Origin: Oscillatoria princeps RMCB-10
Lineage (GTDB): Bacteria > Cyanobacteriota > Cyanobacteriia > Cyanobacteriales > Oscillatoriaceae
Assembly: GCA_019359235.1 (NCBI GenBank)
Contig: JAHHHT010000012.1
Span: forward strand, 131,648-195,647
Length of the DNA: 64,000 nt
Direction: 5' to 3'
This document shows positions 24,251-56,717 of the stretch, in pieces. Position numbers and translations under genes: made by a program. Numbering within the stretch: the first letter of the stretch is position 1; each line of letters starts with the position of its first letter. The notes under the pieces are model-generated. The model made no database searches. It had not been told where the DNA came from and saw only the letters and a program-made list of their open reading frames with translations.

Positions 24251-24970
24251 TCAGGCGATCGTCTCGACTTTACCACTATCTAAGTCGTAACGGGCCCCAA
24301 CGATTTTCAGCCTGCCCTCTTTGAGCAACTCAGTCAGGATGGGTTGAGAGGATTTTAATTGCTCCACAACCAGTTTGACATTGGCTTTGACGGCGTTGTC
24401 GAGCGGGTCGCCGGCTTGGCCTTTCGCCTTGGCCAGGGCGGGGTTGATGGCGGCCAGCAAGCTGCCAATGTGCCCGGGGACTGGCTTGCCTTCTAAGGCG
24501 GCTTTCACGGCACCGCATCCTTCATGGCCCAGCACCACAATCAGGGGGACGCCCAAATGCTCGGCGGCATATTCAATGCTGCCGAGTACCACGTCGTCGG
24601 TGATATTCCCAGCCACCCGGATGTCAAATATATCGCCGATTCCCTGGTCAAAAAGAATTTCCGCCGGCACCCGTGAGTCAGCGCAGCCAAGAACGATCGC
24701 AAACGGATGCTGGCCTTGGGCAACTTCTGCCAGACGCACCCGGTTCTGGTCGGGATAGGTTCGTTTTTCCTCAACAAACCGTTTATTGCCATCCATCAAT
24801 TTTTGCAGGGCTAGATCGGGGCTGGTGCCTGCAGGAGAATCCTCGTTTGTGGCGACACGTTGATGCCCAACCAGCTTGACTGCAAGCGCAGCCGCCAGGG
24901 CTCCCCCACCGGCAGCCGCGAGCATTTCCCGCCGGGAAAGCCGTCTCAAATGCTTTCTGTTGTCCATCAT
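24251..24970 (-). CDS. beta-class carbonic anhydrase with twin-arginine (Tat)-like signal (EcaB-like)
   Basis: Zinc-ligand motifs CADSRV and HEGCGAV. N-terminus RRLSRREMLAAAGGGALAAALA. Confidence 0.85.
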   Translation of the reverse strand: MMDNRKHLRRLSRREMLAAAGGGALAAALAVKLVGHQRVATNEDSPAGTSPDLALQKLMDGNKRFVEEKRTYPDQNRVRLAEVAQGQHPFAIVLGCADSRVPAEILFDQGIGDIFDIRVAGNITDDVVLGSIEYAAEHLGVPLIVVLGHEGCGAVKAALEGKPVPGHIGSLLAAINPALAKAKGQAGDPLDNAVKANVKLVVEQLKSSQPILTELLKEGRLKIVGARYDLDSGKVETIA

Positions 24971-25339
24971 TTGCTACCTTGCGCAAATGTTCAGTCAATA
25001 GGAGTTTAAACCTACTAGCTGGGAGGGAGCTGATTCTTAAGGTAGTCTTTGCAATTCGCTTTTCTGGGGATCTTCGCCCCAGTAGGTGCTGGCTTTATGC
25101 AATGTAGAATAAAAAACTGAGAGTGTTAAATATTATTTAACAAGTCTTTGTAAAAGTTTACATTTGGCGGTAGTAAGGTGAAGGGGGAAGGAAAGGGGGA
25201 GAGGTTCAATACAAAATTGAAATGCTTCCATGTCAGAGCGGGTCTATCCACATCTATTTTGCAGATTAATCGCTGTGGGGGCGGGCTCGCCAGCCGGTGC
25301 CACGCCCCCATAAAGAAAAGATTGCCAGGGATTTTTATG

Positions 25340-26830
25340 TCACTCGTTCATATTCCTGTAAGTTGCCACAGCAGAAGGCGAGATGCGACTCAGATAGCGG
25401 AATATCCAATACTTAAAGATGGTATCCAAAATCACCGGGAAAGTGGCAATAAACAAAAAGTTTAAGTCCCGACTTTCTGGCAGTCCAAGATGCCTGGATA
25501 TGCCTTCCAGAATCACTTCCCAGCCATGCGGTGAGTGGAACCCCACGAAAATATCTGTCAGCAGGATAATAATAAACGCTTTAGCGCTGTCGCTGAGGCC
25601 GTAAATAATCTCGTCCAGAAAAGATTTGAGAATGGCGATATCTCGCTTACTGTTGAAAACTACTGTGGCAAAAACAGCCGCCGAAATCAGGTCAGCAAAG
25701 ATATTTTTTAGGGCGCTATTACTTTCGGATCTGTACTCTTCAGCAATCTCTTCGGCTTTGTGTTTGACCCGCTCCTCTACCTCTTCTGCGGAAAGCTGAG
25801 GTGCCGCGCCTATTAACATTTTAAACTTCAGCTGCTCTTCAAACCGCGCCAAGTCTTCAAAAGCTTCTTTTTCCAAATCTTCGTTTATAAAAATCTCAGC
25901 TGAGCTTCCTTCTCGGAAGTGGTCAACTGCCGGCCCAACAAAGAAAGTTTTTGAGAGCTGCTGCGTCAGGAGGGGAATCAGGACAAGCAAGACAATAAAT
26001 CTCAGCGAAACAACTGTCTTATTTTTGGATTTGCGGAAGTTTTTAACAACTTCCTCTTCGGCTTTGGGGTCGAGGTCTTTTTTGAGTTTTTCAACAGTTC
26101 TCAAGATCGAGCGAGGCAAGAAACTGGTTTTATCAGAAATCGTTTCAGACATTTCTACCGAATCACCGACAGAATAAGGGGCGGGATTGTTTTTGACGAG
26201 GAGGCCAGATTTGAAAGGCTGTTCGCTCTGGCTGTAAGCCACCAATAAGGAGGGGGATGAGGGTGGATAAGTCACTGGCACTTCAGAAGTGTACTTAGCC
26301 AACACCCCATCAATAAACGTCAGCTTTTCTAAAGTAATAGAAGCTTTCTCTCTCAGGACTATATTGGTTGAATACTGAAAGGAATCGGAAGAAGCAATAG
26401 AAAATTCTTTCGGCTGGCCTAACTTGGTAGTGGCCAGAACTGAGCGGCTAATCTTGAAAGCGGACAAGTTGAGTCTAGCGATATTTAGGTACTTGGTTAA
26501 CTCCCCTTCAAAATACTGCATGACACTCTCACTATAGTGAGCTGTTTCTGCAGAAATTTTTTGGCTGTTAAAATGCTGGTCTTCGATTGATTTGATGGTC
26601 AGGGCTGCATTGTAAGCTTCCTCCAGGGATCTCTCCGGTGTCGCGGAAAACCACTTGTTGGCATCGCGGAAGTATCCTTGGAGGTTTTTGAACTGGGGTT
26701 TTTTCATGTCGCGGTTTGTCCTACTTAGGAATATAAGGCGTTGCAAGGGAGCCAAAGGAGCGAAGGCAGAGGGCGAAGAGGTAAGAGAAGAAGAGAGAGT
26801 GTTAGGGGGCGGTGACGACCTGTTTAGCAC
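25340..26830 (-). CDS. pxcA: PxcA/CemA-family proton-extrusion protein
   Basis: C-terminus LSDSAKAFIIILLTDIFVGFHSPHGWE...TFPVILDTIFKYWIFRYLSRISPSAVATYRNMNE is nearly identical to chloroplast CemA / cyanobacterial PxcA. Long N-terminal extension as in PxcA. Confidence 0.9.
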   Translation of the reverse strand: MLNRSSPPPNTLSSSLTSSPSAFAPLAPLQRLIFLSRTNRDMKKPQFKNLQGYFRDANKWFSATPERSLEEAYNAALTIKSIEDQHFNSQKISAETAHYSESVMQYFEGELTKYLNIARLNLSAFKISRSVLATTKLGQPKEFSIASSDSFQYSTNIVLREKASITLEKLTFIDGVLAKYTSEVPVTYPPSSPSLLVAYSQSEQPFKSGLLVKNNPAPYSVGDSVEMSETISDKTSFLPRSILRTVEKLKKDLDPKAEEEVVKNFRKSKNKTVVSLRFIVLLVLIPLLTQQLSKTFFVGPAVDHFREGSSAEIFINEDLEKEAFEDLARFEEQLKFKMLIGAAPQLSAEEVEERVKHKAEEIAEEYRSESNSALKNIFADLISAAVFATVVFNSKRDIAILKSFLDEIIYGLSDSAKAFIIILLTDIFVGFHSPHGWEVILEGISRHLGLPESRDLNFLFIATFPVILDTIFKYWIFRYLSRISPSAVATYRNMNE

Positions 26831-26861
26831 TACGATTTTCCCTTTTCTCTTAAGCGCTGTC

Positions 26862-27572
26862 TCAAGGAATCAGCTCTACTTGGCCGGTGGCTAAGTCGTA
26901 GCGAGCGCCAACAATTTTAACCTGGCCCATTTGCACCAAATCAGCCAGGATGGGTTGGGAAGATTTCAATTGCTCAACCACCATTGTAATGTTGGCTTTG
27001 ACTGCGTTGTCAAGGGCATCACCGGCTTTGCCTCTTGCCTTGTCCACGGCTGGTTTGATGGCATCGACAAAACTGAAAATGTGGCCCGGAACTGGGTTGC
27101 CTTCTAGCGCCGCCTTCACCGCACCGCATCGTTCGTGCCCCAGCACCATAATTAAGGACACACCCAATACCGCTGTGGCATATTCGATGCTGCCGAGAAT
27201 AGCGTCGTCCAGGATATTGCCCGCCACGCGAATCACAAACAAGTCCCCCAGTCCTTGGTCAAAGAGAATTTCCGGCGGAACTCGCGAATCCGCACAGCCC
27301 AGCAAGATCGCAAAAGGATGCTGACCTTTTGCAACCTCTGCGAGACGCATGGGCGTCTGGTCGGGATAGGTGCGTTTTTGCTCAACATACCGTTGATTCC
27401 CTTCTATCAGTTTGTGCAAAGCATCGTCACCCGTGAGTGGGGCGGCTTCTTGTGGTGTTGCTATTTCAGGAAGAACGAGTTCGTCACTCAGTTGATCTAC
27501 GAACCCACTGGCACCAGCCAGAGCCTTGAAATCGGCTTTAGATTTAACCTTTAACTGCTTTCGGTTTGCCAT
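26862..27572 (-). CDS. beta-class carbonic anhydrase, no signal peptide (paralogue of 24251..24970)
   Basis: CADSRV and HERCGAV motifs. About 70% identical to the Tat-signal copy over the catalytic domain. N-terminus MANRKQLKVKSKADFKALAGASGF is not signal-like. Confidence 0.85.
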   Translation of the reverse strand: MANRKQLKVKSKADFKALAGASGFVDQLSDELVLPEIATPQEAAPLTGDDALHKLIEGNQRYVEQKRTYPDQTPMRLAEVAKGQHPFAILLGCADSRVPPEILFDQGLGDLFVIRVAGNILDDAILGSIEYATAVLGVSLIMVLGHERCGAVKAALEGNPVPGHIFSFVDAIKPAVDKARGKAGDALDNAVKANITMVVEQLKSSQPILADLVQMGQVKIVGARYDLATGQVELIP

Positions 27573-27796
27573 CCTTTGCTGCGCGTTAAAATTTTGTTTG
27601 CCCTTGCTGCGATGGAATTTTTCCCAGGGTTTTTTCAGCCGAATCGAGCGGTATTCCGCAAAGTGGAGAGAAAGGGGGAAGCTTTTACGAACCTGTCAAA
27701 ACAGCCCCCGGGCTTTTGGTGGCTGCCCAGGGGCAGCCAGAGCGTGAGTTAAGTTGACGGGATCTAAGCTGAGGTTACCCCTGAAGCGAGAGCCGG

Positions 27797-28093
27797 TTAA
27801 TTGATGATCGACTGCACGTCAGAAAGCAGACACACACCGCCAAATTTTTTCAGTAAAGGTCTGATGATTTCCACAAATTCACTGGCTTGTTCTTCCGTGC
27901 AGATACTCATCACATACCCATTGCTGAACGCGCCGCCCATTTCTAAATCATTGGACACTATCCCTCGCTCGCCCTTGCCTGTAACCTCTCGAATGATGGT
28001 ATAGCCAGAAACGCCCACCTCTTCTAACGTTGACAGCACTTTGTCCAATTCCAATGATGTGATTATGATTTCTACCTTTTTCATCCGCTCCAC
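27797..28093 (-). CDS. sbtB: PII-like signalling protein SbtB
   Basis: 98-aa PII-fold-like protein, 4 bp downstream of sbtA. Lacks the CGPxGC redox tail. Confidence 0.75.
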   Translation of the reverse strand: MERMKKVEIIITSLELDKVLSTLEEVGVSGYTIIREVTGKGERGIVSNDLEMGGAFSNGYVMSICTEEQASEFVEIIRPLLKKFGGVCLLSDVQSIIN

Positions 28094-28097
28094 AGTG

Positions 28098-29135
28098 TCA
28101 CCCTCCCAGCGTTTTAATCATTTCCAGGTACACAGGAATTCCCACTATTATATTAAAGGGGAACGTGATGGCTAGAGCCATCGAAACGTAGAGACTTGGA
28201 TTGGCTTCGGGGACTGTCATCCGCATGGCTGCGGGAACCGCTATGTAAGATGCGCTCGCAGACAATACGGCAAACAAAAGAGAATTTCCCTCGGAAAGGC
28301 CCAGTAATTTTGCGATAACGATGCCGAGAAGAGCATTCAGCACGGGGATGAATACAGCAAAGCCAATCAGGAAAGAACCTGTTTTCTGAAGGTCTTTTAT
28401 CCTTCGTGCAGCGACCATTCCCATGTCCAGCAAAAAGAAAGTCAGGACTCCGTAAAATATTCCTTGGGTGAATGGCTGCATCTTCTCCCACCCTTTCCCC
28501 CCTGTCAGTGCCCCTATTAAGACGCTTCCAACCAAGAGAAAAACCGACCCATTCAGGAAAGCTTCTTTGAAAACTTCAGACCAAGAGAATTCAGAATCTT
28601 CTGTCTTTTTGCCAAAGATCCTGACTAGGAGAATGCCCACAATGATTGCCGGCGATTCCATGAGGGCCAGAGCGGCTACCATGTAGCCGTCAAAATGAAT
28701 GCTGAGTTTGTCCAGGAAAGAACTGGCACTGATAAAGGTGACGGCGCTGATTGACCCATAGGTGGCTGCAATAGCGGCAGCATTATAAGGGTCGAGTTTT
28801 ATTTTCAGGATGAAAAATGTGTAAACAGGTACAGCACAAGCCATGAGGATGGCTGCTGTGAGAGTTATTAAAATTTCCAGACTGATTCCACTCTCGTCAA
28901 GTTCATAGCCTCCCTTGAACCCTATAGCCAGAAGAAGATAAAGAGAGAAGAGTTTGGGCAAAGGCTGAGGGATTTCCAAGTCAGACTTAAGAAAAATCGC
29001 CGCCATGCCGAGAAAGAAGAAAAGAACCGGCGGGTTCAGAAAGTTGAACAGAATAAGGCTTGAATCCATGTAAGCTCCTAAGATTTGTAGCAAGAAACAC
29101 GGAAATAAATTGGCCAGATGAACAGAAGAACTCAC
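28098..29135 (-). CDS. sbtA: sodium-dependent bicarbonate transporter SbtA family (DUF897)
   Basis: Multi-TM protein. Motifs GGYELDESG and PEANPSLYVSMALAITFPFNIIVGIPVY match SbtA. The true start is probably MDSSLILFNF (29069). Confidence 0.8.
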   Translation of the reverse strand: MSSSVHLANLFPCFLLQILGAYMDSSLILFNFLNPPVLFFFLGMAAIFLKSDLEIPQPLPKLFSLYLLLAIGFKGGYELDESGISLEILITLTAAILMACAVPVYTFFILKIKLDPYNAAAIAATYGSISAVTFISASSFLDKLSIHFDGYMVAALALMESPAIIVGILLVRIFGKKTEDSEFSWSEVFKEAFLNGSVFLLVGSVLIGALTGGKGWEKMQPFTQGIFYGVLTFFLLDMGMVAARRIKDLQKTGSFLIGFAVFIPVLNALLGIVIAKLLGLSEGNSLLFAVLSASASYIAVPAAMRMTVPEANPSLYVSMALAITFPFNIIVGIPVYLEMIKTLGG

Positions 29136-30118
29136 CCCTCACTCAGTTATTACAAATATATAAGAGTTTGGCGTGTCGGAGGTATGTCAGTAATATGAAT
29201 ATGCTGTGACACCGGCGCTGGCCCAGATTGATATCAATTTGGGCCTTCGCCATCCTGGCCAGTTGCGGTGTACCACTTCCTGCCGGCGCTCGAGCCGGTG
29301 GGGCTGGCACCGGCGCAGAATATCCGCCTGTCCCTCCGCCCCACTCACCTGTGCGCCACCGCCCCTTGCGGGCGCAACGGGAGGCGACCGGCAAGCCCCT
29401 AGAAGTGGCCCAGTATTGGCTGATCGGGTTCTCATGCAAGCTGGGCAATGGGGATTAACAGTGGCCAGTGCGAGCGTGCCTAGTGCCCCTCTGAATCCGG
29501 CAGCGAATACTTAATCGCGTTGTCCAGTACATTCAGAAAAGCTGGCAACAGCCGTTCTGGATCGCCCTGCAGCTGAACGTCGGGAACGTCCAGGTGGATG
29601 CCAACACTCTAAGGCTCGTATGCGGGACTCCATCGCTAGCACGCAACGATTGAGCAACTGTTGCAGGCTGACCGGCTGCTGTTCCAGTGGCATTTTCCAA
29701 CGCTTCCCTGATTCCAGCAACAGCCAGCCAGTCGGCGACTTGCCCGTCTGTCTGGGGGGCGGAAGTGGCCTACAGGCGACCGTCTGGCGCAAAGACGCGC
29801 CATTGAGAAACTCTCCCGCTTTCCATGAATATATGTAAACTTTATGGGATCTGACAAAGCTTAATTATTTCTTTATTATTTAGCGACTTCCCTTGTGATA
29901 TGCGGCAGTCAAGCCGGGGGCGATCTGCGGGGATCGCCCTTCCTGCAGGCGATCCCGTTGACAGCCGGCACAATGTTGAGATACTGTAATACATAAGTGA
30001 GTCTCGGCTCGCCAAAAGGATACGTTTGGGTGCAGATTGTAAAAAACTGTAAAGTGGGAGACTTTCTGTCTCATTTTGTAGAGGCTTCGAGAAACAGGTT
30101 GAACTGAGAGGTTATAAT

Positions 30119-49062: not shown

Positions 49063-50724
49063 TTAAGGAGCAATGGTGAGTTGACCGGCAGCGAGATTGC
49101 TGACAGCGCGTTGCATGGCAGCCAGAGCCCGATTGTAGCCCAGAATCGCCTGCACCCGGTTGCCTTCGGAGCGGCTCAGCTCGTTTTCTGCAGAGATCAC
49201 GTCGCTCTGGGTGCCCACACCGGCCTGAAATCGCAACCGCGCCAAACGCAGGGCTTCCGTAGACTGCCGCACCTCCACAGAAGCGGTTTGAATATTTTCA
49301 AAATTAGCTCGCAAGTTGTAATAGGCTTGTTCCACGTCGAAGCGAACCTGGTTGCGCTGGGAAGCAAACTGAGTTTCCGCGATGTCCTTGTTTCTTTCCT
49401 CCTGGGTAGCTCTGGCTCTGGCAGCTCCGCCATCGAACAAATTCCACCTCAACCGGGCTCCCACTGCGTAGCCACCGGCAAAGCCCACGCTATCGTCCAA
49501 GTTATTGACCAGATCGTATCGGCCAAAGACACTGACTTGCGGGCCGGTATTGGCCAGAGCCGCCTGTCGCTGGGCGTCGCTAACTTCCCGCTGAACCAAC
49601 TGCTGTTCCAGCTCGGAGCGGTTCTTAAACGCCTGCACGATGCTGTCTTCCAGGGAGAGGTTCCAAAAACCGGCGACTTCCACGGGGTCTGCGGCTGAGA
49701 GATCCACCGACTGGGACAAACTGAGCAGCTGAGCCAGCCGGCGGCGTCTGATTCGCTGATCGCCCCGGCCTTGAGTGAGATTTTGCAGCTCGTTGGCCAG
49801 CTGAACCTGGGAGCGCAGCACGTCAAATCGGGTTCCCACACCGGCTCGTTCCAGGGATTCGGCATCCTTCAAGCTCTGCTGGGCGTTTCTCACAGAAGAC
49901 TCGCTGATGCGGACTTGCTCGTCGGCTTCCTGCAGGTCGTAGTAAGCGTTGGAGACATCCAGCCGCAACTGCTCGTCGATGCGCTCGAGTTCTAGCTGGT
50001 TGAGCCGCACCTGTTTTTCTGCAGCCCGGATGGTAGCAGACCTGCGTCCGGAGGTGTAGACGTCGTAACTCAGTTCCAGCTGGCCATTAAGGCTTCTGCT
50101 GACGGTATCTCCTTGCGGCACCCCTTCTGGCGCATTCAGATTTTGCAGCCGCCCTTGGGCGGAATCCGTGCGGGTGAGGTCGCTGGCCAGATTCAGGGAG
50201 GGATATTCAGCGGCGACGGCTTCTCGCAGGGCGGCGCGAGACCGCTCCACTTGCAGGTAGGCCACCTGGAAGTCTCGATTGTTGCGCCGCGCCAGTTCGA
50301 GCGCCTGTTTCAAGGTGATTGGCTGGGTGCCCTGGATCTGGACTTCCTGCGGTTGGGTGGGAAACTGGAGGGGATTGGGGCTGGGGTTGAGGTAGCCCGG
50401 AGCCGGTGTTTCCTGAAGCTTGTCTGCAGGCTTGGGTGAGGGAGTCTGCGGGGGGGCTGGAGGCACCGCTTCACGCTGAGTTTGGCTGCCACTGCCGCCG
50501 GCGGGTTGCTTGTCAATGCTTGGCAAGGTGTCGGCTGCAGCCGGTGAGGGTGGGGCGGATGGGGCGGACCCGGCGGGTTGGAAATCTTTGCCCGCTGGGG
50601 GTGGGGCTCCTGCAGGTGAACCGGCTGGGGAGGTGGGTGCTGTCTGGGAAGCACCGGGCTGCATATTGCTTAGGGCGATTATTACTCCGGTGCCGGCAGC
50701 TATCAGGTGACGAAAGGTTAGCAT
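49063..50724 (-). CDS. TolC-family outer-membrane efflux protein with Pro-rich N-terminal linker
   Basis: Two TolC-like repeat halves (LTLKQALELA..., LSLEDSIVQAFKNRSELEQ...). Track ORF to 50772; the probable start is MLTFRHL (50724). Confidence 0.8.
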   Translation of the reverse strand: MLTFRHLIAAGTGVIIALSNMQPGASQTAPTSPAGSPAGAPPPAGKDFQPAGSAPSAPPSPAAADTLPSIDKQPAGGSGSQTQREAVPPAPPQTPSPKPADKLQETPAPGYLNPSPNPLQFPTQPQEVQIQGTQPITLKQALELARRNNRDFQVAYLQVERSRAALREAVAAEYPSLNLASDLTRTDSAQGRLQNLNAPEGVPQGDTVSRSLNGQLELSYDVYTSGRRSATIRAAEKQVRLNQLELERIDEQLRLDVSNAYYDLQEADEQVRISESSVRNAQQSLKDAESLERAGVGTRFDVLRSQVQLANELQNLTQGRGDQRIRRRRLAQLLSLSQSVDLSAADPVEVAGFWNLSLEDSIVQAFKNRSELEQQLVQREVSDAQRQAALANTGPQVSVFGRYDLVNNLDDSVGFAGGYAVGARLRWNLFDGGAARARATQEERNKDIAETQFASQRNQVRFDVEQAYYNLRANFENIQTASVEVRQSTEALRLARLRFQAGVGTQSDVISAENELSRSEGNRVQAILGYNRALAAMQRAVSNLAAGQLTIAP

Positions 50725-50842
50725 AGGTTTTTGATTCGCTCTGCAGTGTAAGACACATCCAGGTTCGGGCAAACCACCTTAAGCAGAATAGCAGTTCCTA
50801 CCTAGCCACTGGCTTACTGGGGCTACCGGCTCAATCCGGGAC

Positions 50843-51055
50843 AGAAACCAGATTTCTTTGAGAAACTTGGTTTCTAGTGGCCACTCAGGCGCGGAGTTGG
50901 CCACAGGGCGTCTCCAGGCGGAGGCGGGAGAGAAATCAGATTTCTTTGAGAAACTTGGTTTCTAGTGGCCACCCAGGCGCGGAGTTTCCCACAGGGCGTC
51001 TCCAGGCGGAGGCGGGACAGAAACCAGGTTTCTTTGAGAAACCCGGTTTCTTGTT
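50843..51055. repeat. 2.4 tandem copies of an 88-bp unit built from GAAACCnGnTTTC palindromes
   Basis: Units at 50843-50930, 50931-51018 and partial 51019-51055. Confidence 0.8.
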
Positions 51056-51206
51056 ACCCAGTGGCTGTCCCATCTTAAGTGAATAGCCCTTACTGGCAAG
51101 TAGGGAGTAAGGATTAAGGGTCAATGGTCTTGGTTCCTGGTTTGATAGCCCCTGACAGTAACGATCCTACACAGAATTTTTTGAGACTTGTGACTTGCCC
51201 CAGGTG

Positions 51207-52544
51207 CTAGTGGGATGGCAATTGAATTGTAAATAGGCTGCCTTTGCCCTTTTCGCTAGCAACTGCGATGCTGCCGCCGTGGGCAGTGGCAATGGCTTGG
51301 GCGATGGGCAGTCCCAGTCCGGCTCCGCCGGTGTGCCGGGAGCGATCGCTGCTGACTCGGTAGAAGCGGTCAAAAATTCGCGCTTGTTCGGAGGGGTCAA
51401 TGCCGGTGCCGGTGTCTTGGACTTGAATGAGGGCGTGACCGGCTGCGCTGTCCAGGATAACCGCAACTCGCCCACCGGCTCTTGTGTGCTGGATGGCGTT
51501 GACGACGATATTCAAAACCAGGCGATATAGCTGCTCAAAGTCACCGCTCACGCACAGGGGTTTTGGCGCTCGGATGTCTGGGATTAGCTCAACGCCGGCG
51601 GCTAGCGCCAAAGACGCCAATTCTTCAGTAAGATCGCTGACGAGATCGTTGAGGCAGCAGGGCCGGTATTTTATGGGGGATGACAGCTGGTCGATGCGGG
51701 AGAGGAGCAATAAATCCTGAACCAGCACTGAGAGCCGGTGATTTTGGCGCTCGATCACTCTCAGGGTGTCTCGCGCTTCGGCTAGCTCGAGCTGATTCAC
51801 CCGCAGTGCCGATTCCAGTGTGGCTCGGATGGCGGCTAGGGGTGTGCGCAATTCGTGGGCGGCGTCTGAGGTGAATTGCTGGATTTGCCGGTATGAGCGG
51901 TACACCGGCTGCATCGCCAGCCCCGCCAGCCACCAGCCGGCACCGGCAACTAGCAGCATGGCCACCGGCAGCCCCAGCAGGAGTATCCACCTCACTGCTG
52001 CGAGATAGTCGTCAAAGTCTTTCAGCGAGCGCCCGACTTGCATGTACCCCCAAAGGCGGCTGTCCCGGGTGTGCAGGACTCGGGAAATTTGGTCGTACCG
52101 GCTGCCGGTGGCGTCAGTCAGGGTTTGCCACGCTTGCTGTGGGGGGGTTGCGGGCAATCCTTGCGGCTGAATGCCGGCAGCTGCGATCGGGCGTCCCGCA
52201 ACGTCGAGCAACCGCAGGTAGTAGGCTCCTTGGTGAAGGGCACCGGCGGTGTGTCGCTGGGAATTGACCGGCTGTGTCGAGCATGGTTTGCCATTATAGC
52301 ACAGTTCTGGTAAAATGTCAAATGATGCTTTTTCCAGGCGTCCGGGCTGCTTGAGGGTGGGTTCTATGCTGTCGTGCAGGGTGCCGGCAACGGATTCTAG
52401 CTCTCGGGCTGCAGTGACCCAGTGGGCGTGGGAGATCGCTTCGTAGACGCCAAACCCGCACAGGCTGAGAATTAGGCCCATGACGCCGGCATACCAGCTT
52501 GCCAGTCGCCAGCGGGTCTGCTGGAAGAGTGTGTTTTGGTTCAT
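51207..52544 (-). CDS. sensor histidine kinase, CopS/RppB-like, partner of the OmpR-type regulator
   Basis: H-box AAHELRTPLAAI. G-boxes. Two TM segments. Track ORF to 52667; the likely start is MNQNTLFQQ (52544). Confidence 0.8.
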   Translation of the reverse strand: MNQNTLFQQTRWRLASWYAGVMGLILSLCGFGVYEAISHAHWVTAARELESVAGTLHDSIEPTLKQPGRLEKASFDILPELCYNGKPCSTQPVNSQRHTAGALHQGAYYLRLLDVAGRPIAAAGIQPQGLPATPPQQAWQTLTDATGSRYDQISRVLHTRDSRLWGYMQVGRSLKDFDDYLAAVRWILLLGLPVAMLLVAGAGWWLAGLAMQPVYRSYRQIQQFTSDAAHELRTPLAAIRATLESALRVNQLELAEARDTLRVIERQNHRLSVLVQDLLLLSRIDQLSSPIKYRPCCLNDLVSDLTEELASLALAAGVELIPDIRAPKPLCVSGDFEQLYRLVLNIVVNAIQHTRAGGRVAVILDSAAGHALIQVQDTGTGIDPSEQARIFDRFYRVSSDRSRHTGGAGLGLPIAQAIATAHGGSIAVASEKGKGSLFTIQLPSH

Positions 52545-52602
52545 GGGGGGTGGGGATTGGAACCGCCAAGACGCGCCTGTTCGCCAAGAAAGAAAAAGGA
52601 GA

Positions 52603-53304
52603 TTATTTAGGCGGATTTGGGAGGAGGCGATATCCAAGTCCGTAGACTGTTTCAATGATATCCTCACGCCCTATTTCGGCAAGTTTGCGCCGCAGCAGGC
52701 GCATCTGTGCCGCTACGACGTTGCTGGCGGGTTCTGCGCCCAACTCCCAGAGTTGGTTGAGCAGTTGGTCGCGGGTGACAATTTGGTTGGGGTGCCGCAT
52801 GAAATATTCGAGAAGCTGGTATTCTTTGTTGGTGAGGGAAATCAGTTGTTGGTTGCCGGTGGGGTGTTGAAAAGAAAGGGTGCGGGTGCTGTAATCCAGG
52901 GTGAGGTTGCCGGCGTGCAGTTGCTGGGGTTGAATTTGGGGCGACCGGCGCTGCAGTGCTCGCAATCGGGCTAGCAATTCTGCCATGCCAAAGGGTTTGA
53001 CGAGATAGTCATCGGCACCGGCATCTAAGCCTGCAACTTTATCTTGCATGCTGTCTTTTGCGGTGAGCATCAGCACCGGCAGCGGGTTGCGCTTTGCTCG
53101 CAGGCGCTTGCACAGTTCCAGTCCGGACAGTTTGGGCAGCAGCCAGTCGAAGATGGCCAGGGTGTATTCCGTCCACTGGCTGTCTAAATAGTACCAGGCT
53201 TCCAGACCATCTTGCGCCCAGTCTACTATGTAGGCTTCTTGAGTTAGGGTGCGCTTGATGGCGGCACCCAAATCTGGCTCGTCTTCAACTAGCAGGACTC
53301 TCAT
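52603..53304 (-). CDS. OmpR-family response regulator (CopR/RppA-like)
   Basis: REC MRVLLVEDEPDL...FDWLLPKLSGLEL. Winged-helix C-terminus VYGLGYRL. Confidence 0.85.
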   Translation of the reverse strand: MRVLLVEDEPDLGAAIKRTLTQEAYIVDWAQDGLEAWYYLDSQWTEYTLAIFDWLLPKLSGLELCKRLRAKRNPLPVLMLTAKDSMQDKVAGLDAGADDYLVKPFGMAELLARLRALQRRSPQIQPQQLHAGNLTLDYSTRTLSFQHPTGNQQLISLTNKEYQLLEYFMRHPNQIVTRDQLLNQLWELGAEPASNVVAAQMRLLRRKLAEIGREDIIETVYGLGYRLLPNPPK

Positions 53305-53326
53305 GGGAAATCAGCTGTAACTGCGA

Positions 53327-53668
53327 TTACTGCCCTGTGGTGGGGTTGGGGGTGCCTTGCTGGTGCTGCTGGTGGTTGGTGCCGGCGGGCATGTCGCTGC
53401 TGCCGGCTGCGCCGTGACCCATCATGGTCTTGCACTTTTCCTTCATCTGGCTCATCTGGGCGTTCATCTGCTCCATCTGGGCCTTCATTTGGCCCATCTG
53501 TTCCATCATTTGTTGGTGGTGTTCGGGCGTCATCGCCGGGTAGGGGGAAGGTGCGGTGGGGGCGGAGGGTGGGTTCTGGGCGAAAAGTGGCGCAGCGGCG
53601 AGCGTCAGGGCTGCTAGACCGGCGGCGGCGGCGGTGGTCAGGGAAGGGCTGCGCAGATCATGGTTCAT
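53327..53668 (-). CDS. Met/His-rich periplasmic metal-binding protein (PcoE/SilE-like composition)
   Basis: Signal peptide, then MxxQM repeats: MTPEHHQQMMEQMGQMKAQMEQMNAQMSQM. Confidence 0.6.
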   Translation of the reverse strand: MNHDLRSPSLTTAAAAGLAALTLAAAPLFAQNPPSAPTAPSPYPAMTPEHHQQMMEQMGQMKAQMEQMNAQMSQMKEKCKTMMGHGAAGSSDMPAGTNHQQHQQGTPNPTTGQ

Positions 53669-53856
53669 AGTATCCTCGTTCGGTCGAAACTCTTTAAGCT
53701 TTCTTACTTATTAGCTTGGCAGGGGATTGTGAAATCAGGATGAAATACTTACTGCTTCCAGAACACTGACGGAGAACTGCTCGCCCATGCAGCGCAGGAG
53801 CGAATTATACCGTGAAAAGGTTCGCACTGTCTAGAGGTTGTAACAAAAATTGAGAT

Positions 53857-54333
53857 TCAGTTGTAAGTTTGAATCCTGCCGGTGCCGAAGGGAATATCAG
53901 CTCTCATGCCAACCAGGCGACCGGAGATTGGATAGAGCCAAGTGCGACCCAGGTAGTCGGAAGTCTTAATGCCGTTGAGGGAAATGGACAGAACGGTTCC
54001 CGAAGGCACAGGTCGAGAGAAAGAGATGGTGTGTTTTCTGCCAGTGACAGAAACAGTGGCATCAATTGTTTGCCCCGACCGGTCGTCTGCGACAGCAATA
54101 CCCTCGCGCAGGCTCAAACCCTCTGGGAACTCAATCGAGAGTTGAGAGAGAGCACCCCCCGCAATTTGTAGCTCAAAATGATGGACGGGCGTGAGAGCGC
54201 CGGTGGGATGTCCCGAGCTGTGGATGAGGTGGGGAGTTTTGATATCACCTGCGAGTTCTTCCGCACCGGCAGCTGGGATGCAGGAAGCGAGCGCACTCAG
54301 TAGCGCAGCAAAGTAAATGAGCTTTTTCATCAT
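53857..54333 (-). CDS. secreted hypothetical protein
   Basis: 158 aa with a signal peptide. No family assigned. Confidence 0.5.
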   Translation of the reverse strand: MMKKLIYFAALLSALASCIPAAGAEELAGDIKTPHLIHSSGHPTGALTPVHHFELQIAGGALSQLSIEFPEGLSLREGIAVADDRSGQTIDATVSVTGRKHTISFSRPVPSGTVLSISLNGIKTSDYLGRTWLYPISGRLVGMRADIPFGTGRIQTYN

Positions 54334-54521
54334 AGAAATCCTAAAGGTGAAATCAATTCGCTAGTTAATAGCTTTACACCCCTTTGTGAAATCAAGATGA
54401 AATCGCAGCCGGATAAGGATGAGATGGCTGGGACTCCTGCCAAAGGAATGAGTGTCAAGCAACTGGAAACGTCCGGGCGGTTTCCATTGAGTGGCATTCT
54501 TCTCAATCCGAAAGTCTGAGA

Positions 54522-55319
54522 TCACGCCTGATGGACTAACTTCCAGCCTACCATCACTAAGATTGTGTAAATGACTAGCCGGAGGGCGGATTGAGGAGTC
54601 CTCTTGCAGAGCTTAGCGCCCACCAGCACTCCGGGCACCGTGCCCAGCCATATCGGCAGTACCAAACTCCAGTTGACTGTGCCGAGACTGAGATGTCCGA
54701 GGGAGGTAAAAATAAGCAAAATCGCTGCCTGTGCGATATTTGTGCCCACCAACTTGCGAGAGTCAAGGCGGAAAAAGGCAATCAGCACGAGTGCGAACAT
54801 GGAACCGGAAGACACGCTCGTCAGTGCCACCACACAGCCTAAAATCGATCCCACACTGACAGTTCGGAGGCGACCAAACTTAGTTTTTAAGTCAAACTCG
54901 GGCGGCGAGGGTAACTTCAACTTTGGCAGAAAAGTCTTGAGAAACAATTGTGCGAGCGCCGACAAGGTGACAAGCAGTGTCACGGCTCCAATGGAGCGGA
55001 TCAGGAGGGAATCTAAGTTAACAGCGCCAGTATACTTGATGAGGTGCAAAATGCCGACTCCAGTCAGGGAGCCGGGAACACTCCCCAAGGCCAGCCATTT
55101 GACAATTTGCGGGTCAAGGGTTTGCTGCTGCCAGTGCTTGATGCCGCCGATAACCTTCATCAATGTAGCAGCAACCACGTCAGAGCTAACAGCAACCGCC
55201 GGCGGGACTTGGAACATAAAAATCAACATCGGGGTGATGAGAGAGGCTCCGCCAATTGCCGTTAAACCCACGATGATGCCTGCGAAGAAGCTGAGGGGCG
55301 CTAGTAATAAATAGTTCAT
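54522..55319 (-). CDS. TauE/SafE (TSUP) family membrane transporter
   Basis: Eight TM, Gly-rich. LTAIGGASLITPMLIFMF motif. Track ORF to 55490; the likely start is MNYLLLAP (55319). Confidence 0.7.
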   Translation of the reverse strand: MNYLLLAPLSFFAGIIVGLTAIGGASLITPMLIFMFQVPPAVAVSSDVVAATLMKVIGGIKHWQQQTLDPQIVKWLALGSVPGSLTGVGILHLIKYTGAVNLDSLLIRSIGAVTLLVTLSALAQLFLKTFLPKLKLPSPPEFDLKTKFGRLRTVSVGSILGCVVALTSVSSGSMFALVLIAFFRLDSRKLVGTNIAQAAILLIFTSLGHLSLGTVNWSLVLPIWLGTVPGVLVGAKLCKRTPQSALRLVIYTILVMVGWKLVHQA

Positions 55320-55793
55320 AAGACTGTTCTGATAGAGGGGGTTGCGGTCGGGGCTGCCGGTGGGTTGCGAAGGCTCGCTGGCGTGTGCTGCTACACCGGC
55401 GGCTCGCCATGCGGTACGCGCACCCTCCTGCTGAACTGCTGGATAAGCTTTATTACTTATCAGTTTGGCAGGTGTTTGTGAAATCAGCATGAAAAAATAC
55501 CTACTCGTTGCGGGAAGTTGGGTTATTGCGTAATTAAGCTTTTTGCATTACGCATAAGCGGGGCGGGCGTAAAAAAAATAGGGTGCGACGAGCTCCCCTA
55601 TTTCAGCAATCAGCAAGGAGTGGGGTGCGTTAAGCTGTTACGCTTTTAATATGCTTATGGGAAAAAGGAGACAGAGCCTCCAGAGGCGCGTTCCCAGGCT
55701 CCGCCTGGGAACGAGGGATAGAGATGAATAGCACAAATTAAATGCGCAATAGCTTAGTAAGGCACCCTAAAGTGTCTTGGAGTTTGAGCCTGC

Positions 55794-56717
55794 CTAAAGA
55801 ACATTTACCCAAAAATCAGCGGTGACAATCTGACCGTTGCGGTTAAATTGCCCCCAGAGTTTATATTTCCCCGGTTGGGGGAAGTGAGTCATAAAATGCA
55901 CCTCGCCGGCGGGAGTGCCTCCGTGGGGGTGGGCGTGAATGTAGTCGGATGCTTTCAAATCTGCTGACTGGCGGATAATGACTAAATGGCCGGTTTCGCC
56001 CAGGTAGGTCTGCAAATCAGTTACCTTTTGACCGGTGGCGGTGTCCCGCACGTTAAAGACGAGCATGACTTCTTTGCCGGCTTTGACGGTTGCCTCCGGT
56101 AACGCAAGCTGTACTTTTGTATTGCCAAAGGTCTGGGTGAGATTAATATCAGCAGCGGGTGCCGGTGAGGCGGTGCCGGTTACAGCTGTTTTCAGCACAG
56201 AAACTCGCTCGATCTGTCCGGCTGGTTTGTAGTCGCTGAAAAGCGTGTAACCGCCTGATTTGGGAAAGCTCGCCTCGACTTCAAACCGGCCATTTCCCTT
56301 GTAGGTGGGGTGAATGTGGCTGAAAAACTCGAGGTCATCGCTGACGGCAATCAGGTGCATCAGCTTTTCCTGAAAGGTGTCAAAATTGGTGATGGCTTTG
56401 CCTGCTGAGTCGCGAATGTCAATGACCAGAGAAACGGGTTTGTTTGGGGCAATATTTGATGAAACTGTGAGTTTGGCTAGGCTGGTTGCCGGTGTTCCGG
56501 AATTGCCGTGGGAGGGATCGTTATGTTCGCCTCCGGAAGAACCCCCATGATTCATGGGCTGCGGGGGTTCCATGTGGCCATCCATTTGAGCCATCGATGG
56601 CTGTCCGGGAGTTTCTTGTGTTTGAGCCGGCGCTTCCCCAGATTTCACGGGGAATGAACACCCCTGAGCCGATAATAAGGTGGACAGGACTGCAAACGCA
56701 CTGACAAAGCGATTCAT
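55794..56717 (-). CDS. lipoprotein with His/Met-rich N-terminal region, possible metal-binding
   Basis: Lipobox LLSAQGC. MAQMDGHMEPPQPMNHGGSSGGEHNDPSHGNSG. The likely start is MNRFVSAF (56717). Confidence 0.5.
   Translation of the reverse strand: MNRFVSAFAVLSTLLSAQGCSFPVKSGEAPAQTQETPGQPSMAQMDGHMEPPQPMNHGGSSGGEHNDPSHGNSGTPATSLAKLTVSSNIAPNKPVSLVIDIRDSAGKAITNFDTFQEKLMHLIAVSDDLEFFSHIHPTYKGNGRFEVEASFPKSGGYTLFSDYKPAGQIERVSVLKTAVTGTASPAPAADINLTQTFGNTKVQLALPEATVKAGKEVMLVFNVRDTATGQKVTDLQTYLGETGHLVIIRQSADLKASDYIHAHPHGGTPAGEVHFMTHFPQPGKYKLWGQFNRNGQIVTADFWVNVL

Follow-up and report, generated by a model that had tools for sequence, protein, structure and literature searches.

Within a 64,000-nucleotide stretch of the Oscillatoria princeps RMCB-10 genome (the whole analyzed stretch is hereafter the window), two genes encode β-carbonic anhydrases (CAs) that we designate CA1 and CA2. 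The locus is transcribed from the minus strand in the order histidine-kinase remnant, Sbt_1-family permease, P-II-like protein, CA2, pcxA/cemA (proton extrusion protein PcxA), and CA1; a convergent GT2-TPR gene comes after CA1 (Table 1). CA1 and CA2 are not adjacent because pcxA, which is also called as a gene in contig L001 and whose maximal open reading frame (ORF) extends to 26830, sits between them.

Table 1. Features of the carbonic anhydrase locus, in window coordinates (aa, amino acids; nt, nucleotides; ORF, open reading frame; RR, twin arginine; Tat, twin-arginine translocation).
Feature	Position	Strand	Evidence
CA1, EcaB-type β-carbonic anhydrase, 239 aa, intact twin-arginine signal	24251..24970	-	ORF; PF00484 (Pro_CA) 144.7 bits (cut-off 25.7); synteny with Microcoleus vaginatus, L094, L096
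CA1 Tat signal peptide, ~residues 1-30	24881..24970	-	LSRREML n-region, Ala/Gly/Leu h-region; RR conserved family-wide
pcxA/cemA, proton extrusion protein PcxA, 455 aa from called start	25340..26707	-	PF03040 349 bits; NCBIfam NF002703 603 bits (cut-off 526)
CA2, EcaB-type β-carbonic anhydrase, 236 aa	26862..27572	-	PF00484 145.9 bits; catalytic residues intact; no twin arginine, no uncharged hydrophobic core
CA2 vestigial Tat signal, residues 1-35	27468..27572	-	aligns position by position with the signals of CA1 and relatives
Spacer between P-II-like gene and CA2, 224 nt	27573..27796	-	GC hairpin and short T-run at ~27697-27738
P-II-like protein, 98 aa	27797..28093	-	PF00543 60.8 bits
Sbt_1-family permease, ~324 aa by called start	28098..29072	-	PF05982 420.6 bits; maximal ORF to 29135
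Histidine-kinase remnant, frameshifted, internal stops	29489..29720	-	tblastn with PCC 10802 protein, 62-71% identity
Accessory block, ~4.8 kb (kinase remnant, Sbt_1, P-II, CA2, PcxA)	24991..29802		blastn of L096 against window; tblastn; gene tables

CA1 and CA2 are true paralogs of one β-CA subfamily. A BLASTP alignment of the two proteins contains 151 identities in 237 positions (64%; E 4e-106), including all of the motifs quoted in the original prediction, and the mature domains are 73% identical; the predicted pair of paralogous genes with catalytic domains that are ~70% identical is, therefore, real. They do not, as had also been claimed, differ only in their N-terminal regions, since ~27% of the residues in the mature domains differ too. 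Both proteins match the Pro_CA family with nearly the same score (Table 1), and the zinc ligands (Cys-His-Cys) and Asp-Arg dyad of the CxDxR...HxxC signature (C93, D95, R97, H146, and C149 in CA2 numbering) are invariant in the 55 aligned members that include CA1 and CA2. The same catalytic residues align with those in Rv3588c (CanB; 1YM3/2A5V) from Mycobacterium tuberculosis, the closest solved structure to CA2 (E 1.5e-39, residues 53-232; CxDxR and HxxC identical); this protein is from another phylum and biological context, so it is uninformative on targeting. AlphaFold2 models the catalytic core of CA2 with a predicted TM-score (pTM) of 0.71. Among characterized cyanobacterial enzymes, both share 45-47% identity over ~190 residues (E 1e-50 to 1e-53) with the non-carboxysomal β-CA EcaB (Slr0051) from Synechocystis sp. 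PCC 6803; the Slr0051 query was read by machine from the supplement of PMC9865033, so a few letter errors are possible. The carboxysomal β-CA CcaA (5SWC) is also a cyanobacterial β-CA that lacks a signal, but it is much more distant from CA2 (E 2e-16, compared with 1.5e-39 for Rv3588c). CA2 also has no C-terminal extension and stops where its catalytic domain does, at residue 236, as CA1 does; on both counts, CA2 is not a CcaA.

The leaders of the two enzymes are very different in character. CA1 starts with MMDNRKHLRRLSRREMLAAAGGGALAAALA, in which LSRREML is followed by an uncharged Ala/Gly/Leu core; an ALA in this leader is a possible signal-peptidase site. CA1 matches the TAT_signal profile PF10518 weakly (E 0.039, below the cut-off), and a close relative (P0003) passes TIGR01409; together with the SRRxML motif, these matches bear out the prediction that one copy has a signal like those used for twin-arginine translocation (Tat). 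CA2 starts with MANRKQLKVKSKADFKALAGASGFVDQLSDELVLP, in which KSKADFK is followed by GFVDQLSDELVLP. The two leaders can be aligned residue by residue with BLASTP, so the CA2 leader is a Tat-signal homolog that has degenerated rather than an extension of unrelated origin: the twin arginine is replaced by K-A (in S-K-A-D-F-K), and the core contains D26, D30, and E31. Tat transport requires the twin arginine (PMC6708511). CA2 lacks the S/T-R-R-x-F-L-K motif with an uncharged h-region that is expected of a Tat substrate, and it gives no match to the TAT_signal profiles; that the second copy has no hydrophobic core was, thus, correctly predicted. The leaders of CA1 and CA2 both lack a cysteine (a putative lipoprotein attachment site); a relative, P0019, has LAAGC.

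We compared these leaders with those of the 120 best homologs from 5.8 billion proteins. The RR motif is present in every full-length member of this set except CA2 and its ortholog in Oscillatoria sp. PCC 10802 (Kamptonema formosum in NCBI protein records; 87% identical to CA2). The maximum hydrophobicity of CA2 over 12 residues (0.95) is the lowest of the 120 (1.3-2.8 for the others).

An apparent loss of a signal could arise from annotation, if the true start of CA2, along with a normal signal, were farther upstream or in a different frame. The original prediction had itself raised such a hidden signal (upstream, in another frame, or from an alternative start) as an objection; we looked for it and did not find it. 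An in-frame stop is located 42 codons upstream of the ATG with no ATG, GTG, or TTG between, and no frame of the 224-nt spacer upstream of CA2 encodes a signal-like, hydrophobic, or RR-containing peptide. Furthermore, the ATG and first codons of CA2 are kept in four lineages, and the leader that they encode aligns with true Tat signals throughout. We conclude that an annotation artefact is almost certainly not the explanation.

The change in CA2 was also described in the original prediction as re-targeting; what we observe is loss or decay of a signal, with no new targeting feature found. Residues 1-40 are predicted by AlphaFold2 to be disordered (predicted local distance difference test, pLDDT, <50), with no new targeting element recognizable in the leader, and FVDQLSDELVL has a helical hydrophobic moment (0.44-0.53) no greater than that of shuffled controls; for these reasons, we dropped the idea that the leader is an amphipathic helix or encapsulation peptide. 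Because CA1 has a Tat-type signal and CA2 has no RR, no uncharged core, and no hidden signal, the two proteins are most likely located in different compartments in O. princeps, as judged from their leaders. The claim that there are two compartments for CA activity is therefore probable with respect to location, and the activity itself is predicted for both enzymes.

Four lineages have a CA2 with a readable N-terminus (the window, L008, a remnant in L014, and PCC 10802), and these allow the history of the leader to be followed. In a codon alignment, all four have K/Q-A-D where the relatives have R-R-x. Three of the four share the acidic core F[VA]D[QR]L[SR]DELVLP that includes D26, D30, and E31; PCC 10802 alone has LVAIAMAEIVIP in the core and retains an uncharged stretch, LPALTGASGLVAIAMA, with an A-x-A site. 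Because PCC 10802 is the most divergent lineage according to the distances of flanking genes and because its core matches the outgroup residues (L24, A26, and A30), we favor, without regarding the matter as settled, the order in which RR was lost first and the core was acidified later in the O. princeps branch, with the original core retained in PCC 10802. The opposite possibility, that PCC 10802 re-gained its core (its N-terminus shares states with that in L014), is considered less likely on the same two grounds.

The ratio of nonsynonymous to synonymous substitution rates (dN/dS) for codons 1-50 of CA2 is ~1.1-1.3 when O. princeps or L008 is compared with PCC 10802; comparison with the L014 remnant gives 0.4-0.7. 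The mature domain of CA2 has a ratio of 0.115-0.18 over 186 codons (at dS 0.15-0.23), that is, strong purifying selection; the mature domain of CA1 is looser (0.24-0.31). Between O. princeps and PCC 10802, the mature domain of CA2 is 94% identical and the neighboring PcxA 88%. Thus, the leader of CA2 looks vestigial and near-neutral, and the enzyme is clearly maintained.

CA2 is part of a larger unit. The flanks of the locus in L096, a very close relative known from a metagenome, are 92-96% identical to those in the window, yet the entire segment from the kinase remnant to pcxA is absent (blastn and tblastn; compared with L096:6640-8000), so CA2 belongs to an accessory block of ~4.8 kb. The block is present in the window, L008, L014, and PCC 10802; L009 covers its 3' part (the end of the P-II-like gene, a CA2 remnant, and pcxA). 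The kinase remnant marks the upstream part of the block; its counterpart in PCC 10802 is an intact HisKA/HATPase sensor kinase (215 aa) encoded directly upstream of the permease (L003:7518-8165). As separate observations on these contigs, CA1 in L096 is just 78% identical to that in the window and has the lipobox LAAGC, which suggests recombination or rapid change at the locus; and in L008 (Logan assembly; L008:2674-5968) the permease is split into two ORFs, PcxA is missing residues ~48-189, and CA2 has a G-to-E substitution beside a catalytic Cys, oddities that could be real decay or assembly errors.

Either CA has been lost in some relatives. In PCC 10802, CA1 is a pseudogene (L003:12861-13186): it retains an intact Tat signal and intact codons 1-76, together with the last 44 codons, but a deletion accompanied by a frameshift has removed ~120 codons from the catalytic core; CA2 is intact. 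In L014 (L014:11498-11758), only the first 87 codons of CA2 are left, and in L009 (L009:201-473), the N-terminus is deleted and only ~53 C-terminal codons are left; in both, CA1 and pcxA are intact, and the two truncations are independent. The window and L008 retain both copies, and L096 lacks the whole block. The lineages with an acidic core in CA2 (the window, L008, and L014) all keep CA1, and the sole lineage that lost CA1 (PCC 10802) has a CA2 with a hydrophobic core; this pattern fits, but does not prove, the suggestion that CA2 of the O. princeps type is unable to supply exported activity.

The losses could also be read as evidence that CA2 is on its way out: nonfunctionalization would have begun with the disappearance of the export signal, and the copy in O. 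princeps would have no role. The two independent truncations, the absence of the block from L096, the kinase pseudogene that heads the block in the window, and the neutral evolution of the leader would all be expected. However, the ORF is intact in three lineages, the mature domain is under tighter constraint than that of CA1 and better conserved than the neighboring PcxA, and all of the catalytic residues are invariant; in view of these, we consider decay of CA2 to be very unlikely.

The pair is not young. The dS between CA1 and CA2 (1.05-1.18) is near saturation, as compared with 0.06-0.40 between CA1 orthologs and the even narrower range given above for CA2, and a CA2 without RR is common to at least four lineages; the duplication is therefore old, and its description as recent is unsupported. 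We also compared the locus with single-copy relatives, as the original prediction had proposed. In Microcoleus vaginatus and the closer relatives L094 and L096, a single CA with a Tat signal adjoins the GT2-TPR gene that follows CA1 in the window, and genes for sbt, P-II, and pcxA are missing from the vicinity. From this synteny, CA1 is the resident gene, the positional ortholog of the single-copy CA in relatives.

The origin of CA2 is less clear. In a neighbor-joining tree of the mature domains, the CA2 and CA1 clades have bootstrap values of 100% and 96%, respectively, but their relationship is unresolved (deep nodes, 35%); the identity of CA2 is 73-76% with CA1 and 70-73% with the single-copy genes of other Oscillatoriales. 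CA2 may, therefore, be either a copy of CA1 or an older lineage. A tandem duplication with duplicated flanks was considered and rejected, because homology detected with blastn is confined to the coding region and a weak 28-nt match at the start codon; with pcxA intervening, CA2 located within the accessory block, and no sister relationship in the tree, a simple local duplication is not supported. Searches for further genes of the CA2 type yielded only two clusters at 90% identity among proteins and nothing above 66% identity in a scan of metagenome contigs. As judged from these sequences, CA2 is an EcaB-type enzyme with no recognizable export signal that is restricted to a small Oscillatoria clade.

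The neighbors of CA2 were placed in context by a scan for the permease with one genome per species, which identified 80 loci. Two are close (the uncultured Oscillatoria metagenome-assembled genome L014 and PCC 10802); in the other 78 (L016-L093), the permease is 73-77% identical, and the organisms include Nostocales, Pseudanabaena, Stenomitos, Acaryochloris, and others. In 76 of these 78, a P-II-like gene follows the permease (two Acaryochloris loci have no P-II match), and in 41 a β-CA is encoded 20-50 nt after the P-II gene (Nostocales, Stenomitos, Coleofasciculaceae, Pantanalinema, and Allocoleopsis). Every one of these 41 CAs has a twin-arginine leader of the ERRDFLKLG type; the trio, thus, normally encodes an exported CA, and CA2 breaks this pattern. 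The window has the gene order of the trio, with CA2 directly downstream of the P-II-like gene that follows the Sbt_1 permease. CA2 departs from the trio CAs in that it has no RR, is located 224 nt after the P-II gene (instead of 20-50 nt), and is followed by pcxA; among the scanned loci, pcxA and a second CA downstream of the trio occur only in the Oscillatoria clade. Although CA2 shares the gene order after P-II, it was rejected as an ortholog of the operonic CA in Nostocales: the identity is only 56-59%, and in the tree it is located outside the operonic clade and groups with the EcaB-like clade of Oscillatoriales.

The permease is a distant homolog of the bicarbonate transporter SbtA (7CYE; E 8e-25, partial), and the P-II-like protein is nearer to the carboxysome-associated CPII (5D4N; E 4e-7) than to SbtB (E 2e-3) in a comparison with the Protein Data Bank (PDB). 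A limited literature search found no description of the Sbt_1/P-II/Tat-CA trio, so this widespread cyanobacterial trio is apparently undescribed; it points to a periplasmic CA that feeds a bicarbonate-type transporter.

The spacer between the P-II-like gene and CA2 is conserved across four lineages to about the same extent as coding sequence, and it contains GC-rich hairpins with GTTTTG after them, an arrangement that could serve as an attenuator or terminator. We found no covariation across the four lineages and no match to Rfam that would indicate a structured RNA in this spacer. Scans of the cluster for promoters and terminators gave counts no higher than those for shuffled sequence. No tRNA or tmRNA gene was found in the 64-kb window (1-64000), nor any Rfam family at the gathering threshold; the GC skew is +0.10 to +0.17 over ~6 kb (50001-56000), compared with roughly 0 in the rest of the window, and is accompanied by a negative AT skew at 50-54 kb.

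Our favored interpretation, to which we give somewhat better than an even chance, is that CA1 is exported and that CA2 would be an active enzyme that is not exported by Tat and stays in the cytoplasm. With a vestigial, near-neutral leader and a constrained catalytic domain with intact zinc ligands, CA2 is most likely active and unrecognized by Tat. In the history that we propose, CA1 and CA2 are old paralogs of the cyanobacterial EcaB-type β-CA. CA1 is the resident copy and would be exported by Tat to the periplasm and/or the thylakoid system, as described for EcaB; CA2 occupies the slot behind the Sbt_1 and P-II-like genes that is held by a CA with a Tat signal in many cyanobacteria. In the ancestor of the O. 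princeps/PCC 10802 clade, the twin arginine of CA2 would have been replaced (RR to K/Q-A), and three acidic residues would then have been gained in the hydrophobic core in the O. princeps branch. CA2 would now be retained in the cytoplasm, perhaps on the inner side of membranes that faces it, with CA1 supplying the exported activity. What the sequences show is the paralogy, the decay of the signal, the constraint on the enzyme, the genes around it, and the losses in relatives; catalytic activity, retention in the cytoplasm, and any functional link between CA2 and the adjacent Sbt_1, P-II, and PcxA are inferred.

Several points weigh against retention of CA2 in the cytoplasm. The loss pattern is drawn from five or six lineages, of which several are low-coverage metagenome contigs (both L014 and L009 are such assemblies), and CA2 is dispensable in relatives, as evidenced by its truncation in L014 and L009 and the absence of the block from L096. 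In Synechococcus PCC 7942, an active cytosolic CA abolishes the carbon-concentrating mechanism (Price & Badger 1989, as cited in PMC4027813); constitutive CA2 in the cytoplasm should, therefore, do harm if neither its expression nor its activity were under control. A cytoplasmic CA2 would, then, have to be regulated at the level of expression or activity or else act locally; PcxA is needed for light-induced proton extrusion (PMC8671777), and a local role with the adjacent PcxA is a candidate. Finally, because β-CAs are oligomers, CA2 could leave the cytoplasm bound to CA1.

This last point leads to the proposal that CA2 is exported indirectly, in mixed oligomers with CA1 as a Tat hitchhiker; in PCC 10802, which has no CA1, the residual hydrophobic leader would be used as a Sec-type signal or anchor. 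Both CAs would then act in one compartment, next to the Sbt_1 permease and PcxA. β-CAs are obligate oligomers (e.g., Rv3588c), and the mature domains of CA1 and CA2 are 73% identical; also, the CA in the orthologous slot has an RR leader in every other genome (41 of 41), the sole lineage without CA1 is the one that has an uncharged CA2 stretch and an A-x-A site, and the reciprocal losses of CA1 or CA2 in relatives suggest partial redundancy. Tat is known to export folded hetero-oligomers in which only one partner has a signal, such as PaoABC and the small and large subunits of hydrogenases, in which the protein without a signal is likewise encoded near its Tat-signal partner (PMC4273604, PMC10924467). 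Here, however, the partners are paralogs of the same enzyme, and a complex of CA1 with CA2 is hypothetical. Moreover, CA2 persists in PCC 10802 without CA1, so hitchhiking is not obligatory; a leader that is not needed would be as likely to be deleted as to be retained at full length, as it is here; and the mature domain of CA2 is more constrained than that of CA1 (0.12 compared with 0.27-0.31), unlike a redundant passenger. We consider indirect export to be unlikely.

Returning to a cytoplasmic CA2, the carbon-concentrating mechanism of cyanobacteria is thought to depend on a cytosol free of CA. The stronger claim that CA2 is a cytoplasmic, active, non-carboxysomal CA that is maintained under selection, contrary to this rule, would be quite unlikely to hold. 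Two roles could be imagined for such an enzyme. The two locations reported for EcaB could have been divided, with CA1 exported and CA2 hydrating CO2 beside the NDH-1 CO2-uptake complexes of the thylakoid; alternatively, PcxA could extrude the proton that results from CO2 hydration, creating a CO2 trap with a logic like that of DabAB or CupA.

The closest characterized system is EcaB, which belongs to the same subfamily as CA1 and CA2 and has a twin-arginine leader like that of CA1. EcaB has been reported in the periplasm and, for the most part, at thylakoid membranes; it has been proposed to act with the NDH-1 CO2-uptake complexes (CupA/B) (PMC10096703, PMC11360081, PMC9283085). The O. princeps system differs in that CA2 has neither the twin arginine nor the hydrophobic core, in that both CA1 and CA2 are without the putative lipoprotein cysteine, and in that two copies occur at one locus, one of them inside the Sbt_1/P-II/PcxA block.

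The Oscillatoria clade provides a natural experiment, that is, EcaB-type enzymes with and without an export signal at the same locus and relatives that are missing either copy; one of the strains concerned, PCC 10802, is available in culture. To our knowledge, the roles of the external CAs (EcaA and EcaB) are still unclear after 25 years. Should CA2 turn out to be inactive or still exported, the locus would simply illustrate the ordinary decay of a signal peptide after gene duplication. Activity of CA2 in the cytoplasm, unusual as that would be in cyanobacteria, would reveal conditions in which a cytosolic CA is tolerated or useful, and it would offer a handle on the disputed function of EcaB in the periplasm or at the thylakoid.

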